From contig CAJINV010000115.1 in assembly GCA_905178155.1 (NCBI GenBank), positions 1 through 5,875 on the forward strand: DNA of 5,875 bases. The letters are read 5' to 3'. The position numbers and the translations under genes were made by a program. Every line of letters begins with the position of its first letter. Position 1 is the stretch's first letter. The notes under the pieces were generated by a model. It saw only the letters and a program-made list of their open reading frames with translations. It did no database searches and had not been told where the DNA came from. Positions 1 through 5,875 of the stretch are shown piece after piece. This stretch comes from Amoebophrya sp. A120. Lineage: Eukaryota > Protista > Dinoflagellata.

Positions 1-150
1 ATTTCCAGTACGTTCACATTTTTTCTAGCACAACAACATCATCATCTTCTCTTTTTCCAGCTGCACCGGGGCTCACTGGGAAAGATAAGCATTTTCGGAC
101 TTCGAGGCGTTCTGCTGCACGTGCTATTTTTTGTCGGTTTTATCCAGGCG

Positions 151-180
151 TTTTATTGTTTTTTTATTTTATTTTTACTA
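151..180 (-). terminator. A-rich tract with three AATAAA hexamers downstream of ORF2 (possible polyadenylation signal)
   Basis: Plus-strand TTTATT at 152-157, 163-168 and 168-173, about 145-165 nt after the ORF2 stop. Confidence 0.4.
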
Positions 181-317
181 ATCATCGTCCTCCCAAGTGT
201 TTGTCATCGATGTCCTTCGTCGAGGTCGTTGTGCAAGAGCAAGACTTCTGCGTGTCTTCCATAACAAGGTCGAGGCATCGGAGTGCGCGGCGGCAGGAAC
301 CTGTTACTTCTGGACTG

Positions 318-3300
318 TTATGCACTAGTTTCTAACATTCTTTCATAAACTATTCTACCGTATGCAATTCCTTGTCTTTGCTGCTGGCTTGTGTTGCTTT
401 TTTCTGGAACCCCTTTCTTCTTCGGCAGGGCCATCGTGCGTATTTTTCTTCCGTCACATGTGGCTTTCATGCCGCAAAACTCTTCTTCTGCCGTCGTGTT
501 CTTCACATGGCAGCCGGGGTATATGTTCGCAAGGGGCTGGCGCTGGCTATTCTTCTTCGCTATTCGCACCCGAAGAATGTCATCAATGTATCTTTTGTAC
601 AGCAGCAAGCCAAGGATTGCACTACTACTTCTTTCATGTTTGTAGCCAAACACGTTACTGATTTCGACCATTGCAGGGGATCCCATTGGCCCGCCAGTAG
701 TTTGGCGGAGGATGTGTCCTAGACATCGGACATAGCAAAAGTTGATATCTAGCTGTAGCACCTCCTTCACAAAACTCGGCGTCATCCAGGTTATTCCCTT
801 GCCCGGTTTCTTCTTCAGGTACTGAAATCTCCTCTGCGGTTTTGGCTTTTCGATTCTGTACAGCTCCTCCATCCCTCCGCGCAGTCTTGGTCGGTCTCGG
901 TGAACATCTAGTCTTTCTCGGAGGATGTGGTCTGCTTCCATGGCGATGTATTTCACCCCCTTGTTCTCCAGGGAGCTAGTGAAACCTCCCAGGAAACTCG
1001 TCGAATCCGCTGTGTCGCAACGCGTGAAGAAATCTTTCAGGTCTCCCGTGTCCAGCTGTAGCTCCTCGTCTTGTTTCCCTGTCTCTGCGAAGTGTCGGTT
1101 GATTTTTTCAATTTCTTCCACTACTTGTCGCTGCGTATAAAAAGTTGTTCGTCTTGCCGTTGGTTCGATTATCCTTCTGGCTATTTTTGCTGCTGCTGAT
1201 AGAATTCGCTTGTAACAATGCCCGGCATATGATGTCAGCGGGCGGTAGGCTATCCCTTCATCGGGCCACGGAAGGAAGTCATCGCGTTGTAGTTTGTTGA
1301 TAAAACGTGCCTTGAACAGGATGCGCAGGAAGGGCAACCTGTGTCGCCTGCTGGCTCTCATCGAAGTTCCTCCATCCTTGTGCAAGCTGAAAAACTCGCC
1401 GGCTTCGTCTTTTCTCGTCAACCCGAACCACCCCGGCACCTTCTCGTACTCCTCGGTGTGTTTTTTCATCGTTCTCTGCATCAACCTGTTGCAAGAGAAG
1501 AAAAGCTGCTTCTCGGGGTCTTTGTCTACTTCGTCGCAGTACAGAATATTCGCTCTCGAAAAGGCCAGCAGGCTCGCGTCAATGTCGTCGACAGTAACTC
1601 GGTTATCTTGTACCCACGTCCAGTCTACTGATTTTTCGGCCGCCCATCTGTCTGCTCTCCCGTCTAGCTTTATTACCTTCGTCCCGATCGCTTTTTCTAG
1701 TTTCTTTCTGGCTGCTGCAAAGTGCCTCTCTGTTTCGTTTCTGTTCGGGTGGAACCTGCCGAGCTTGTTCCAGGTTGGGTCTTTTCCCGGTTTTAGCAGC
1801 GGCAGCGTTTTTGTTGAAAAGCACACATGTCCATCAACGAGGGGGGCATCTGGGTACAGTTCTTTGATCTTCTTGCAGTGACATGGTGCGTCTTGTCCTG
1901 TCTGCTCCCAGTAGGCCAATAGGCCATGCCAGTTTTTCAGCCGGGTTCGGAAAAAGTCATGCGTTCGGGCGCACTTTTTTCTCTTTATCCGGATGATGAC
2001 ATCTCCTTCTCCTGTTCCTTCATGTTTGTACCTCTGCGCCATCGTGCTGTAGATCGAGAGAAGCGGCCCGATTGCTTCTGGTGATGTGTCGAAGAGCTCG
2101 ACCGTGGCTATTCTTGCTGCTATTTTTTCGCCTCGTATGCATTTGAGGTGGTGCTGGAACATCAGGTATTTCCCATCGGCCAAAATCCGCCTCGCATATC
2201 TGTCCAGCGCGATCACCTGTCTAGTGTTGAGATTCGTGAGGGCGGTCTGAACGTGTCGGGGCGGCTCCTTTAGTCTCAGTGACAGCCTCGTAATGAGCTT
2301 CAGGAACTTGTAGCCAACCTCTTTCAGGTTCCTCGTCCTCAAAATCCGCGCCGCTTCCTTCGGAATTTTGTCGCTTGGGCTTCTGTGCTCTCCTCCTTCT
2401 CTTCTTCGTCTCGTCGAGCGGAATTCCTTGCAGGTTCTGGCGGTCATGATGATCGTTTTCCGAATTCCCCCGTACTTTTTGCCCTTGGCGCTCGCTTTTT
2501 TCTCCATCGTGTTCGCCGTTGCATTGAAATACCCGATCAACATCATCTCGGCCATTTTCAGCGGCGTGGACTCCACTATTCGCGCTCGCATCACTCTCAC
2601 GAACAAGTACTCAGCCAGCTCTTTTCGATGGAACGCGCACCCCCGTCCATCACGGTACTCGCTGATCTTCTCGGACCAGTGGCACTTCCATCTGGTCTTC
2701 TTGTGCTGAATGGTTTGTCCGATGTAAGTCGACCGCGTTCCCGGACGCCAGGCGAGGTAGATAACTCCCTCCTCGTTTTCTCCTTCTTCCCGTTCGTCTT
2801 CGTTTGCCGCGCAACAAATCTCCAGTTTGTTTCGTAGGGTCCTGCAGAAATGTGTGTCGCTTTTGTCCAGGAACGCCCTGGCGATCCATTGGTCAAGGCT
2901 GAAAAGAGAATCTCTCAACACTGGCAAGAAGTGTCGCCCTCCTATTCTCGGCGCTGGTAGTGGTCTGCTGTCTCTGCATTGTTCTGCCCAAGGCTCGGGC
3001 AGGTTCTCGGCTTGGAATCTGTTGGTGGAGTAGGTTACTTGTTTTGCTCTTTTGTCATAGTCGAAGGTGACTACGCAGCTGCATCGGTTTGTTTGTCTGC
3101 AATAGTTACACTGCCCCCGTGGCGCTGCTGTTCGTGCAAAAGCGTAGCTTTTCATTGCTACTATAAGTTGTTGAGTGGTCGCGCACATGTTGTCGGTGTA
3201 CGTGTGCGGGCCTCTTCTTACTAGATCTCGGATTTTGTTGCGGATAAGGTGCAAAACGTTTATCCACGTGCGTGTGCCTACTCTCAGCGAGAGTGGGTAA

Positions 3301-3332
3301 AGCGGTACTGTTCTGTTAGTTCTCATCATCAT
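318..3332 (-). CDS. ORF2: GIY-YIG endonuclease / reverse transcriptase polyprotein (PLE-type, Naiad/Chlamys-like architecture), 1004 aa
   Basis: Uninterrupted ORF starting ATGATGATG and ending TAA. Motifs: GVIY(189-192), YIGQT(203-207), R214, H218, E262, N274; PCHC..GHVC(483-504); DK(603-604); LPFLRILFK(666-674); RPLTS(697-701); DLKDFFT(764-770); QTTGGPMGSP(877-886); RYIDD(914-918); EFCGM(951-955). Confidence 0.92.
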   Translation of the reverse strand: MMMRTNRTVPLYPLSLRVGTRTWINVLHLIRNKIRDLVRRGPHTYTDNMCATTQQLIVAMKSYAFARTAAPRGQCNYCRQTNRCSCVVTFDYDKRAKQVTYSTNRFQAENLPEPWAEQCRDSRPLPAPRIGGRHFLPVLRDSLFSLDQWIARAFLDKSDTHFCRTLRNKLEICCAANEDEREEGENEEGVIYLAWRPGTRSTYIGQTIQHKKTRWKCHWSEKISEYRDGRGCAFHRKELAEYLFVRVMRARIVESTPLKMAEMMLIGYFNATANTMEKKASAKGKKYGGIRKTIIMTARTCKEFRSTRRRREGGEHRSPSDKIPKEAARILRTRNLKEVGYKFLKLITRLSLRLKEPPRHVQTALTNLNTRQVIALDRYARRILADGKYLMFQHHLKCIRGEKIAARIATVELFDTSPEAIGPLLSIYSTMAQRYKHEGTGEGDVIIRIKRKKCARTHDFFRTRLKNWHGLLAYWEQTGQDAPCHCKKIKELYPDAPLVDGHVCFSTKTLPLLKPGKDPTWNKLGRFHPNRNETERHFAAARKKLEKAIGTKVIKLDGRADRWAAEKSVDWTWVQDNRVTVDDIDASLLAFSRANILYCDEVDKDPEKQLFFSCNRLMQRTMKKHTEEYEKVPGWFGLTRKDEAGEFFSLHKDGGTSMRASRRHRLPFLRILFKARFINKLQRDDFLPWPDEGIAYRPLTSYAGHCYKRILSAAAKIARRIIEPTARRTTFYTQRQVVEEIEKINRHFAETGKQDEELQLDTGDLKDFFTRCDTADSTSFLGGFTSSLENKGVKYIAMEADHILRERLDVHRDRPRLRGGMEELYRIEKPKPQRRFQYLKKKPGKGITWMTPSFVKEVLQLDINFCYVRCLGHILRQTTGGPMGSPAMVEISNVFGYKHERSSSAILGLLLYKRYIDDILRVRIAKKNSQRQPLANIYPGCHVKNTTAEEEFCGMKATCDGRKIRTMALPKKKGVPEKSNTSQQQRQGIAYGRIVYERMLETSA
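468..1526 (-). other. Reverse transcriptase core of ORF2 (aa 603-955)
   Basis: Catalytic aspartates D764 (nt 1041-1043) and YIDD (nt 579-590), motif B QxxGxPMGSP starting at nt 704, finger motifs P..IxxK and RPLTS, and the PLE-type DK motif at nt 1521-1526. Confidence 0.92.
1821..1886 (-). other. Zinc-knuckle-like motif PCHC-x14-GHVC in the EN-RT linker
   Basis: Translation PCHCKKIKELYPDAPLVDGHVC (aa 483-504). As I recall, a CxC..GH motif at this position is characteristic of PLEs with N-terminal EN. Confidence 0.65.
2511..2768 (-). other. GIY-YIG endonuclease domain of ORF2 (aa 189-274)
   Basis: GVIYLAWRPGTRSTYIGQTIQHKKTRWKCH...AEMMLI...ATAN carries the GIY and YIG motifs, the downstream Arg and His, the metal-binding Glu and the terminal Asn, in the order expected for the superfamily. 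Confidence 0.9.
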
Positions 3333-3345
3333 ATTTCTTCAATTC

Positions 3346-3362
3346 AAACAAGTGGGCGAGAA
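3346..3362. repeat. 17-bp inverted repeat, arm in the ORF1-ORF2 spacer (AAACAAGTGGGCGAGAA)
   Basis: Exact reverse complement of 5594-5610; lies 13 nt upstream of the ORF2 ATG. Confidence 0.95.
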
Positions 3363-3385
3363 GTCGTCGTTGTTATTGCTGCCAA

Positions 3386-3394
3386 AATGGCGCT
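3386..3394. repeat. 9-bp inverted repeat arm (AATGGCGCT), complementary to the ORF1 start-codon region 5578-5586
   Basis: 5578-5586 reads AGCGCCATT, the exact reverse complement. The pair is nested co-linearly inside the 17-bp pair. Confidence 0.85.
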
Positions 3395-3439
3395 CGATGT
3401 AGATCTGTTGTGCACGTGCGAAGCGGATTACTGCTGCTG

Positions 3440-3495
3440 TTTTTTGTTTTTTTAAAAAATTTTTTACTTTTTATTATTTTTGCTTTTTTAATATT
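3440..3495 (-). promoter_or_regulatory. A-rich tract in the inter-ORF spacer containing AATAAA (possible polyadenylation signal or internal promoter element)
   Basis: The minus strand is almost pure A/T from about 27 nt after the ORF1 stop. AATAAA is at 3470-3475 and AAAAAGTAAAAA at 3461-3472. Confidence 0.35.
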
Positions 3496-3521
3496 GCCAG
3501 AACCAGAACTGCACTACTGTG

Positions 3522-5585
3522 CTACTCCTCCCACTTCCCGTTCATCCATGCGTCCCATTCTTCTTTCGAGTACTCTTTGTTCCAGTCATTCGCATTCTCC
3601 TCTTTTCCCGTTTTGTTGGAGTTGATGTTCCCACTGCTGTTGCTGGTGTTGCTGCTGCTTGTTTTGTTGTTCCCACTGCTGTTGCTGTTGCTGCTGCTGC
3701 TCGTCCTGTTGTTTGTTTCCTGTTCCACTTCATCCTCGTACTCCCAGGTCTTGTTGCAGTTCAGGGCGTTCTTGCTGCTGTTCGATTTATTGTTCTTAGC
3801 TTTTTCCAAATTCCCGTCGTCATTCGGTACCAAATCGCCCACATCCAGTTCATCGTCGTCAAACTGCTGTTCCAAAAAATCCACATCCACCTCGTCATCT
3901 GAATCCAGGTTAATAATCTCGTCCTCTTCTGCGTAGTTCCCGAAATTGCCGATGGAGTGTTTTTCCGCGAGGTCTGCGTCATCTCCGTCGTCGATCTGCA
4001 TCTTGCTGGCTTTTTCGACCTTGATGCTGTAGTCGAGAATCTCCATCACCCTGATAGCCAACCCGATTCTGCCAAAGCTCTGCTTCTCTACCCAGACTGC
4101 TCCTTCGTCCGTGTCCTTCACAAAGCTGTACGATTCTGCTCCAAGGAGCATGAAGTGCTTGCGGAAGTCTTCGTGCCAAAAACACTTTTGGTAGAGACCG
4201 GTTTTATCTCCAGTGAGCGTAGACTGCACCGAAGCCTGCAACGACCCCACATTGATCTCCGGCAAGATCTTCCCCGCTTCCTTCACCTTTTTTGTGACGC
4301 TCCGCATCATGTACTTGGCGAAAGTTTCCGGCTTCTTCATGTGCTTGGGCTTCCACATGTCAAAAGAGGTCTTTGCGGCATGTGCTCCGGTTTTCACTCC
4401 TACATCCGAAAGCTTCTGGCTGCTCTCTTCTTCAAGGCATTTCCAGGTTTCTGCTGCTGCTTCCCACTCGTCTTCCAGGTAAGCTTCCCAGTTGAAGTTG
4501 ACAAATTCCTTTTTCTCTGCTTTTTTGGCGTTCTCCGTACTCCGCTCCGCAGCTTCTTCCGCAGGGGTTTTTGGCAGTGGTGGTAGCACGGGGGTGTCCT
4601 GCAGTTTCAGCTTTCTCTTCTTGCCCTCGGCCTGGTCTTCCTCCGCGTGCTCGTGTTCTTCTTCGCCGTCCTTCTCTGCTACTGTTTCGCCCTGTTCTTT
4701 CTCATTCGGTCGCGGTCGCAAGTTCAAGGCTCTGGTGGAGGGTTGAATAATTTCTGGCGGCACCTCTAAAACCGTCGAGGCCATCTCAACGTCTTTGTTT
4801 CCCTTATTCTTCCCACCTTCTTTCCCCGCGCCCTTTCCCTTCCCGTCTTTCTTCGTCGGCAAAGCCACAGCGTCGCGGCGCACGAGCTGTTTCCCTTTTC
4901 CTCCTTTGCTCGTAGTCCCGGCTTCTTCTCCCTTCTTGCTGAACTGTACGCGCTGGAGCTCCTCGATCTTCTTGTTCTGGTTCTTGATCAAGTCCACTAA
5001 TTCCTTCGGGATCCCAGCGGGCTCCTTGCTGCTACTGCTAGTAGTCGGAGCGACTTCTTCCGTTTCCTGCGGCGGCCCATCAACACACTTTTCCCAGTCG
5101 ATTTTGTCATACCAATCCGGTTCCGGCCCGACAATTTTCGAGAAGGCGCGGCTGCTGATGGTACTCATGGCGCTGAGCATCTTCCTCTGGTCTTCTTCTT
5201 TTACCATATCCAGTTTCGCTACCAGTGCCGCGACATGTCCTACAGCGAATCTGGGTACTGGTAGTGGGCAATATTTCGGGATTGTTAGCTCGGGGTAGGC
5301 TGGGTCCAGGATCTTCAGGGTGTTCATCATTTCGCGCGGGACTTTTCCCAGGAGGCTGACGTCTCTGGTGCTCCGTCCTTCTGCAATCGGATAATAGGTA
5401 AGCTTTCCGAAAAACTTCTCTTCCGAAACTGCTTCCACGGCGTCGTTGTTCCATCCCCCGGGCGGTTGCTCATTGTACTGGAACTGGTTGTATCCGCCTC
5501 CTTTTCCACCAAAATAGTTCTTTCCTCCTCCGTATCCTTTACCGGCTCCACTGTCTGCCGGCGGTCTTCGATTTGCCAGCGCCAT
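3522..5585 (-). CDS. ORF1: hypothetical protein of 687 aa (701 aa if the TTG at 5627 is used), largely disordered; possible RNA-binding/RNP chaperone
   Basis: Long open frame whose first in-frame ATG (5585) is in strong context (ATAATGG). It has a Gly/Tyr/Lys-rich N-terminus, a short heptad-like stretch (ELVDLIKNQNKKIEELQR), GK-rich and KKRKLK basic patches, Asp/Glu tracts, an Asn/Ser repeat and a Trp-rich acidic tail. No known domain was recognised, so the function is inferred. Confidence 0.85.
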   Translation of the reverse strand: MALANRRPPADSGAGKGYGGGKNYFGGKGGGYNQFQYNEQPPGGWNNDAVEAVSEEKFFGKLTYYPIAEGRSTRDVSLLGKVPREMMNTLKILDPAYPELTIPKYCPLPVPRFAVGHVAALVAKLDMVKEEDQRKMLSAMSTISSRAFSKIVGPEPDWYDKIDWEKCVDGPPQETEEVAPTTSSSSKEPAGIPKELVDLIKNQNKKIEELQRVQFSKKGEEAGTTSKGGKGKQLVRRDAVALPTKKDGKGKGAGKEGGKNKGNKDVEMASTVLEVPPEIIQPSTRALNLRPRPNEKEQGETVAEKDGEEEHEHAEEDQAEGKKRKLKLQDTPVLPPLPKTPAEEAAERSTENAKKAEKKEFVNFNWEAYLEDEWEAAAETWKCLEEESSQKLSDVGVKTGAHAAKTSFDMWKPKHMKKPETFAKYMMRSVTKKVKEAGKILPEINVGSLQASVQSTLTGDKTGLYQKCFWHEDFRKHFMLLGAESYSFVKDTDEGAVWVEKQSFGRIGLAIRVMEILDYSIKVEKASKMQIDDGDDADLAEKHSIGNFGNYAEEDEIINLDSDDEVDVDFLEQQFDDDELDVGDLVPNDDGNLEKAKNNKSNSSKNALNCNKTWEYEDEVEQETNNRTSSSSNSNSSGNNKTSSSNTSNSSGNINSNKTGKEENANDWNKEYSKEEWDAWMNGKWEE
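3621..3704 (-). repeat. Imperfect 2 x 42-bp tandem repeat in ORF1 (TSSSSNSNSSGNNK / TSSSNTSNSSGNIN)
   Basis: The 20-mer TGTTCCCACTGCTGTTGCTG occurs at 3626-3645 and 3668-3687, a period of 42, within AAC/AGC-rich low-complexity coding sequence. Confidence 0.85.
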
Positions 5586-5593
5586 TATTTGTT

Positions 5594-5610
5594 TTCTCGC
5601 CCACTTGTTT
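5594..5610. repeat. 17-bp inverted repeat, arm in the ORF1 leader (TTCTCGCCCACTTGTTT)
   Basis: Exact reverse complement of 3346-3362. Confidence 0.95.
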
Positions 5611-5617
5611 TGATGAT

Positions 5618-5635
5618 TTAGTTCCAAAATTGCAT
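5618..5635 (-). promoter_or_regulatory. Short upstream ORF MQFWN*
   Basis: ATG CAA TTT TGG AAC TAA on the minus strand, in weak context (CGCATGC). It is the only AUG between the TATA-like motif (5730) and the ORF1 ATG. The sequence is certain; its translation is inferred. Confidence 0.5.
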
Positions 5636-5704
5636 GCGTTTATGTAAAATATAGTGAGCAGTTTAAGGCGTAATAAGTTTACGATTTTCTATGGTGTTAA
5701 TCAG

Positions 5705-5732
5705 TTTTTATTTCTTTTTACTTTTTTATAAA
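5705..5732 (-). promoter_or_regulatory. A-rich tract with a TATA-like motif upstream of ORF1
   Basis: The minus strand reads TATAAAAAAGTAAAAAGAAATAAAAA from 5730, about 145 nt upstream of ATG 5585. TTTATAAA (5725-5732) is palindromic, and AATAAA is at 5707-5712. Promoter function is inferred only. Confidence 0.35.
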
Positions 5733-5875
5733 GATCAGAGATTTTAGATATTACCCGCAAAGCTAAAATATCTAGGCAAATTCCGGAGACAGTTTGATCT
5801 CACTAAAGCGACGAAGTGTAAAGACGAACGAAGTTTTCCAAACGTAAAGAAGTGCTAGAACATCGGGAAAGTCCA

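Follow-up and report, generated by a model that had tools for sequence, protein, structure and literature searches.

A 17-bp inverted repeat around the first gene of a Chlamys-like Penelope retroelement: a candidate ribosome shunt to the reverse transcriptase

We analysed a 5,875-nt stretch of DNA (the window: positions 1 to 5,875 of contig CAJINV010000115.1, Amoebophrya sp. A120), the minus strand of which carries two long co-oriented open reading frames (ORFs), 189 nt apart, that belong to a Penelope-like element (PLE). ORF2 encodes the endonuclease and reverse transcriptase (EN-RT) of the element, and ORF1 lies between the arms of a perfect 17-bp inverted repeat, each arm just ahead of a start codon. 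The repeat is real and, taking three RNA-level readings together, most likely forms an RNA duplex controlling ORF2 expression. By analogy with viral leaders we rank first, at a probability of roughly 0.4, a ribosome shunt gated by a short upstream ORF (uORF), in which the stem would loop out ORF1 and translation would restart at ORF2; the support comes from one sequence. The features involved are given below in the order of the sense RNA, along which window positions descend.

5725..5730, minus strand: TATAAA box-like motif in an A-rich tract
5618..5635, minus strand: uORF MQFWN*, 5 codons, weak start context (C at -3 and +4)
5611..5617, minus strand: linker from the uORF stop to the 5' arm, 7 nt; also the 5' strand of predicted helix 3
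5594..5610, minus strand: 5' arm of the perfect 17-bp duplex; contains the sole GT between 5681 and the ORF1 start (5604-5603)
3522..5585, minus strand: ORF1, 687 amino acids (aa), strong start context, Gly/Lys-rich N-terminus, E/K-rich, predicted short coiled coil
3333..3521, minus strand: spacer, 189 nt, no AUG; A-rich tract with ATTAAA (3492) and AATAAA (3475)
3372..3375, minus strand: UAAC, the single branch-point-like motif in the spacer
3346..3362, minus strand: 3' arm; 14/17 pyrimidines, a share matched but not exceeded elsewhere among 17-mers of the sense strand
3333..3345, minus strand: A/U-rich stretch and candidate landing site, 13 nt, 10/13 A/U, predicted unpaired at 0.72-1.0; holds an AG at 3338-3337
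318..3332, minus strand: ORF2, 1004 aa; Cys cluster, GIY-YIG, CxC and RT

A rare inverted repeat lies just ahead of both start codons

An earlier note on this DNA had described the uORF, the arm that begins 7 nt after its stop, a perfectly complementary partner arm about 2.2 kb downstream and, behind it, the A/U-rich stretch followed by AUG-AUG-AUG of the EN-RT ORF. All of these coordinates were recomputed and are correct, with 2231 nt between the two arms and the three ORF2 AUGs at 3332/3329/3326, directly 3' of the A/U-rich stretch. The note had also placed both arms just ahead of start codons, and the measured distances agree: the 3' arm ends 13 nt ahead of the ORF2 AUG and the 5' arm 8 nt ahead of the ORF1 AUG, the latter a distance that the note had missed. 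Both arms are non-coding. Of the 10 inverted-repeat pairs listed, the 17-bp repeat alone is perfect, and no third copy of the 17-mer was found at up to three mismatches.

The rarity of such a match, which the note had roughly put at 1e-3, was computed as about 3e-4 for a 17-bp match anywhere in the window and as 1.1e-5 for the 290-nt leader against the spacer. A length of 17 bp was reached in 0/600 block-dinucleotide shuffles of the window (longest 16) and in 0/2000 leader-by-spacer shuffles (longest 14). Among 10000 shuffles, 427 produced a uORF of 2-15 codons that stops 5-10 nt ahead of the arm, which adds a factor of about 0.04.

Leaky scanning and readthrough are poor routes to ORF2

Thirty-six AUGs lie across ORF1, and leaky scanning to ORF2, which would have to pass all of them, was rejected. 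ORF1 and ORF2 share a frame, with three more in-frame stops between them, the last one three codons before the ORF2 AUG; readthrough or an ORF1-ORF2 fusion was rejected because of these further stops in the spacer and because the ORFs do not overlap. We also discarded a route in which the GT in the arm would join the uORF in frame to ORF2, since the uORF stop comes first; a signal like the termination upstream ribosome binding site of caliciviruses, for which a GUGGGA-like motif is present at the ORF1 end but the restart site is 189 nt away; and an inverted remnant of a pseudo-long terminal repeat (pLTR), as both ORFs are intact and co-oriented and the repeat is just 17 nt. Because leaky scanning and simple readthrough are poor routes, a special route to ORF2 is needed, and those that remain are shunting, splicing, a separate transcript and reinitiation across the spacer.

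The leader resembles those of viruses that shunt

In rice tungro bacilliform virus (RTBV) and rice tungro spherical virus (RTSV) the uORF peptides of the shunt are 5-6 aa long, and the uORF stop lies 7 nt (RTBV) and 8 nt (RTSV) before the helix (PMC3291615). The features described for shunting are a short 5'-proximal uORF in a moderate context that stops 7-8 nt ahead of a stable helix, and a landing site that is UA-rich and open (PMC3291615, PMC5902531). The uORF length, weak context, 7-nt distance and A/U-rich stretch of the element match the RTBV/RTSV geometry. The earlier note had compared the layout with a range of 5-10 nt in cauliflower mosaic virus (CaMV); a stop shortly before the stem is indeed part of the viral arrangement, but the passages cited here give 7 and 8 nt, and for RTBV and RTSV.

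The likeness to CaMV, RTBV, RTSV and prototype foamy virus (PMC5902531, PMC3291615) extends over a short uORF in suboptimal context, the 7-nt distance from stop to helix, and an A/U-rich stretch followed by a long ORF. In those viruses, as these sources describe them, the stem-loop is inside a leader of 445-697 nt and serves the first long ORF, whereas in the element the loop would be a translated 2.1-kb gene and the shunt would lead to the second cistron, ORF2, whose AUGs are predicted to pair with the linker. If true, a shunt across an entire translated gene of 2 kb would extend a mechanism of viral leaders below about 700 nt to a transposon.

The earlier note knew of no such description for PLEs, and we found none of this layout in the open-access literature, judged by titles and abstract openings. 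The arrangement would be new for PLEs, but there is a retroid precedent: in duck hepatitis B virus (DHBV) a shunt gives access to the RT, which is encoded by the second cistron (PMC5902531, section 9). Both are bicistronic retroid RNAs with the RT beyond a first ORF, the shunt being a candidate here. For DHBV the same section calls the take-off site undefined and names no long-range helix, whereas the element has a discrete 17-bp candidate bridge; if the shunt is true, it has the defined bridge that DHBV is without. How two-ORF PLEs make their RT is not covered in the main text of PMC8557442 (Craig et al. 2021), in which alveolat, dinoflagellate, shunt, base-pair and translation do not occur and the host group Amoebophrya is not mentioned.

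The two arms are predicted to pair across ORF1

The fold and partition function were computed on RNA 5700-3290 (2411 nt). The 17-bp helix is present in the minimum-energy structure and its arms pair at 0.81-1.0 in the ensemble; the arms alone give -28.6 kcal/mol. All of the pairs that span more than 1000 nt at p>0.5 (41/41) link the leader to the spacer or to the ORF2 start. Leader and spacer each fold weakly on their own (z +1.56 and +0.44), so the arms are without a strong local competitor. When leader and spacer were run against each other, as the earlier note had suggested, the best duplex energy of -31.0 was matched by 0/40 shuffles. Two further helices are predicted beside the 17 bp.

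5578..5586, minus strand: 5' strand of predicted helix 2, over the ORF1 AUG; 0.38-0.58 in the 2.4-kb fold
3386..3394, minus strand: 3' strand of predicted helix 2; 9 bp
3325..3331, minus strand: 3' strand of predicted helix 3, within the ORF2 AUG-AUG-AUG; pairs with the linker 5617-5611 at 0.68-0.73

The complementarity behind helix 3, between the 7-nt linker and 3331-3325 inside the ORF2 AUGs, had escaped the earlier note. Predicted helix 3 leaves the A/U-rich stretch as a bulge and, because the linker pairs with 3331-3325, neither the linker nor the ORF2 start is free in the equilibrium model. By the landing-site criterion of the caulimovirid type, the 13 nt are predicted to be open at the values listed above, yet the nearby 3331-3325 are predicted to be paired at about 0.7. 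Shuffles reached the length of helix 2 in 30/5000 cases (narrow window) and 68/3000 (wide), and that of helix 3 in 500/200000 (flush) and 4464/100000 (any position). The helix-2 strand also has 9-10-bp partners in 17/582 windows along the element.

A uORF-gated shunt could set the ratio of the two proteins

The shunt presumes a single transcript in which the arms pair and all of ORF1 is looped out. With the TATAAA at 5725..5730, transcription would start near 5700 and the uORF AUG would come first: it is the first AUG after 5730, one further AUG being at 5863. Most scanning ribosomes would bypass the uORF AUG with its weak context, unwind the stem and translate ORF1; alternatively, ORF1 could be made from a shorter RNA that ends at the spacer AATAAA and is without the 3' arm. 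A smaller share of ribosomes would translate the uORF and terminate 7 nt before the stem. The footprint of a terminating ribosome reaches about 10 nt past the stop codon. A ribosome halted at the uORF UAA would cover the 7-nt linker, open exactly helix 3 and free the adjacent ORF2 AUGs, and the 40S subunit would resume on the A/U-rich stretch and restart at ORF2. That the EN-RT is made in just this way, by a ribosome that ends the uORF, unzips the 7-bp helix 3 and reinitiates at ORF2 2.3 kb downstream, is a tentative proposal to which we give somewhat less than an even chance. Such an RNA would be expected to yield much ORF1 and little EN-RT, because the start contexts run from weak (uORF) through strong (ORF1) to good (ORF2). 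A high ORF1-to-RT ratio is usual in retroelements.

A related locus has the two ORFs without the duplex

Searches for related loci returned 0 in viral_contigs, 0 in genome_contigs and, from 122 candidate stretches, one in metagenome_contigs. This sole related locus recovered (L001, a contig of P0010; 24% ORF2 identity) carries an ORF1 of 774 aa with a Gly/Lys-rich start, a spacer of 244 nt and an ORF2 of 1132 aa. Since it has the same two-ORF layout, the two ORFs look native to the lineage. It is flanked by direct repeats of about 1 kb, some 9.4 kb apart (205-1175 and 9602-10573, with 97-100% identity in the pieces listed), as expected of a pLTR. Two extra acidic ORFs (133 and 235 aa) with a UAAUG-type stop-start overlap lie at 1528-2636 of this locus, between the upstream direct repeat and ORF1, which makes it a four-ORF unit of about 9.4 kb.

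The native look of the two ORFs weakens the idea that the repeat acts at the level of DNA, as the terminal inverted repeats (TIRs) of an ORF-carrying transposon or introner (5610-3346) inserted in the leader of a single-ORF PLE. Its length agrees, as 17 bp is usual for a TIR. ORF-bearing, TIR-flanked introners have been reported in Amoebophrya A120 (PMC12130899). However, no target-site duplication of 2-10 nt is present, ORF1 is without a Pfam match, and in run X1 both ORFs lie on one contig at a flat depth of 45, which shows no extra copies of the cassette there. The related locus, moreover, carries an ORF1 of similar size at the same place and with a like Gly/Lys-rich start, although the two ORF1s give no significant alignment (best E 0.08). 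We therefore consider an insertion of this kind very improbable.

Findings that weigh against the shunt, and a chance origin of the repeat

Several points speak against the shunt and temper its first rank. The related locus has no comparable duplex: its best perfect leader-spacer helix is 9 bp, its best energy of -24.7 is matched by 9/40 shuffles, and its spacer holds 7 AUGs. Helix 3, if it forms, departs from the open take-off and landing sites of CaMV. Helices 2 and 3 were found after the fact, the looser of their length tests are the less favourable ones, and with the arms held fixed, shuffled flanks were as stable in 134, 95 and 92 of 400 trials, so that both helices fail the energy test. 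The uORF, spacer and position criteria were likewise picked after the sequence had been seen. The transcript itself may differ from that assumed: the spacer AATAAA may terminate many transcripts ahead of the 3' arm, and a second TATA-like stretch near 5650 could exclude the uORF. The absence of AUG from the spacer, which arises in 190/3000 shuffles (a factor of about 0.06), is weak by itself and compatible with every rival explanation. Finally, over about 250,000 scanned windows, chance would by simple arithmetic give about 75 window-wide and about 3 leader-by-spacer 17-mers, and it is for this reason that the position of the arms relative to the two start codons counts.

The earlier note had listed homologues lacking the pairing among the observations that would tell against its proposal, and the pairing is missing in the 1/1 related locus. 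The duplex is thus not clade-wide; at 24% identity, its lack there does not show it to be idle in the family of the window. The note's central proposal that the second cistron may be translated by a shunt is supported in part, by a duplex that is beyond chance, is predicted to form and is arranged as in RTBV/RTSV, but the related locus is without the pairing and splicing fits the same sequence.

The points just given also bear on a chance origin of the repeat, with ORF2 reached by reinitiation after ORF1 across the AUG-free spacer. Other bicistronic non-long-terminal-repeat elements, L1 among them, reinitiate in this manner. SART1 uses reinitiation as well (PMC10275272), the related locus manages without a duplex, and some 17-mers are bound to turn up when many windows are scanned. 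Against this explanation stand the shuffles, none of which reached 17 bp, and a leader-by-spacer expectation that is very small even before the closeness of both arms to start codons is counted. We give a chance match little credence.

The same sequence could be read as a splicing device

The duplex may instead govern splicing. In this explanation ORF1 lies in a retained intron. The paired arms would either bring the intron ends together, as has been proposed for Amoebophrya introners, or hide the donor and the pyrimidine tract and thereby limit cis- or trans-splicing to an ORF2 message to a small share of the RNA. The GT within the 5' arm is a candidate donor. Towards its end the spacer has the UAAC, then the pyrimidine-rich 3' arm and then, 4 nt ahead of the ORF2 AUG, an AG that is a candidate acceptor; 12/12 of the donor-acceptor pairs tried put the ORF2 AUG first or second. 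The related locus shows a pyrimidine tract and CAG in its ORF1 leader and an AG one base before its ORF2 AUG. On the other hand, neither the donor nor the AAG acceptor is a strong consensus site, the pyrimidine tract follows necessarily from complementing a purine-rich leader, and the position of the uORF is left unexplained.

More than 60% of Amoebophrya introns are non-canonical and, of those, 11-30% carry terminal inverted repeats of 8-20 nt (Farhat et al. 2021, PMC7789003). These features count for splicing because the three closest named relatives of ORF2 are from Amoebophrya. In addition, PLEs retain introns in their 5' untranslated regions (PMC8557442), and RTBV splices a leader uORF to a distal ORF (PMC5902531).

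Like the Amoebophrya introners of PMC7789003, the segment has an inverted repeat in the range of 8-20 nt (here 17 nt) that would close a hairpin around it, and the nearest named relatives of ORF2 are from that lineage. Unlike the introners, it holds the ORF1 of the element itself, has no extra copies seen in run X1 and is about ten times longer, with a loop of 2.2 kb against an average of 120-240 nt. A boundary direct repeat of 3-5 nt and an arm start of TTA or TAT, as given there for introners of A25/A120, were not found: no repeat is flush for 2-10 nt, only AAAT occurs at an offset (5619, 3336), and the arm starts AAA. Because the direct-repeat and terminal-triplet features fail, we do not file the segment as an introner, although it could work like one. 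On balance we regard splicing as unlikely, while taking it more seriously than the other alternatives to the shunt. Were it nevertheless the case, an inverted-repeat-guided intron would switch a retroelement between its two proteins, which would bear on how non-canonical introns of the Amoebophrya type are removed.

A possible fold that hides both start codons

In the third RNA-level reading, helices 2 and 3 hide both start codons, whereby the full-length RNA is withdrawn from translation and serves as the template for retrotransposition, the proteins being made from shorter RNAs: one for ORF1 that ends at the spacer AATAAA and one for ORF2 from a promoter in the spacer A-tract. The predicted 2.4-kb fold covers both AUG regions. 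Similar A-rich tracts precede each ORF by about 150 nt, with another behind ORF2, and both ORFs are followed by AATAAA. The spacer AATAAA, 46 nt past the ORF1 stop, is a possible polyadenylation signal for an ORF1-only RNA; together with the similar A-tracts before each ORF it is the reason why we keep separate transcripts among the routes to ORF2. Against such a shut-off fold, its flanking helices do not pass the energy test, TATAAA is absent from the spacer, and the uORF geometry is left as a coincidence of about 4 in 100. We judge it improbable, more so than splicing.

ORF2 encodes a Chlamys-like EN-RT

The Cys cluster of ORF2 (aa 75-86) is followed by a GIY-YIG endonuclease (aa 190-274), with VIY..YIG at aa 190-205 and then R, H, E and N motifs to aa 274. 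A CxC motif (aa 484-486) lies between EN and RT and is kept in 6/6 relatives that fully cover the region (10 aligned). The RT (aa 601-918) has the DK (aa 603-604), A, B' and YIDD motifs, with 113 aa from motif A to B' as read without alignment to reference PLEs. No Cys lies between VIY and YIG, which speaks against the Naiad type and indicates the Chlamys type as defined in PMC8557442. Motif order and the Cys-free endonuclease core fit a two-ORF Chlamys-like Penelope retroelement.

The element shares with the Chlamys group of PMC8557442, including the two-ORF Chlamys-2_cBra, an N-terminal GIY-YIG without core cysteines, the CxC and DK motifs, a long A-B' region and the absence of a detected hammerhead ribozyme; one Chara family of that group likewise has an upstream ORF. 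In the window, an Rfam scan to E 5 found no hammerhead (4 weak unrelated matches), and part of the 3' end may be outside the window. Unlike that group, the ORF1 of the element has no CCHC knuckle, its ORF2 has the additional N-terminal Cys cluster, and its nearest relatives are in Amoebophrya. The cluster, CxxC-x5-CxC 5' of the GIY-YIG (window 3077-3110, minus strand), is also present in P0002, P0007 and P0009. Naiads carry a CX2-5CxxC finger and Chlamys elements are described as without one (PMC8557442); the Cys order in ORF2 differs from that of the Naiad finger.

ORF2 gave 0 Pfam and 0 PDB matches and none in a word-indexed protein search. A HMMER search found 28 relatives at E <= 0.001, three of which are 100% identical pieces of the ORF2 protein. 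Among the ten relatives looked up, the closest named ones are Amoebophrya gene models at 33, 30 and 34% identity. The Amoebophrya gene models P0002, P0005 and P0006 are fragments of N-terminal GIY-YIG PLE proteins. In a language-model atlas ORF2 is placed at 0.92-0.97 among clusters of 800-1080 aa, several of them with GIY-YIG or RVT_1 on a minority of members (PF01541 on 16-38%).

ORF1 and the ends of the element

For ORF1 no homologue or family was found in Pfam, the word-indexed protein search or the language-model atlas, and its single-sequence structure model is poor (predicted local distance difference test score 39.7). Its product is likely an RNA-binding accessory protein of the element. 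A 42-nt tandem duplication at window 3622-3713 encodes a Ser/Asn-rich stretch close to the ORF1 C-terminus.

In run X1, which may be the source of the window, a single contig, at the flat depth given above, spans 66-5810 except for one skipped repeat. Both ends of the window are shared with other loci.

5778..5875, minus strand: 5' terminal stretch common to other loci in run X1 (possible pLTR, tail or neighbouring repeat); several contigs start or stop there, depth 89-127 against 45 for the body
1..95, minus strand: 3' terminal stretch, more than one copy in run X1, with a diverged variant adjoining; depth 95, loose end at 95

A pLTR or partial tandem was looked for, and no repeat between the two window ends was found. 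A small hairpin without an Rfam match is predicted at window 50-95, in the multi-copy stretch, and in X1 the diverged variant is next to position 95. Three similar A-rich tracts with AATAAA, at 5740-5695, 3500-3430 and 185-140 on the minus strand, correspond to the element start, the spacer and the 3' end.

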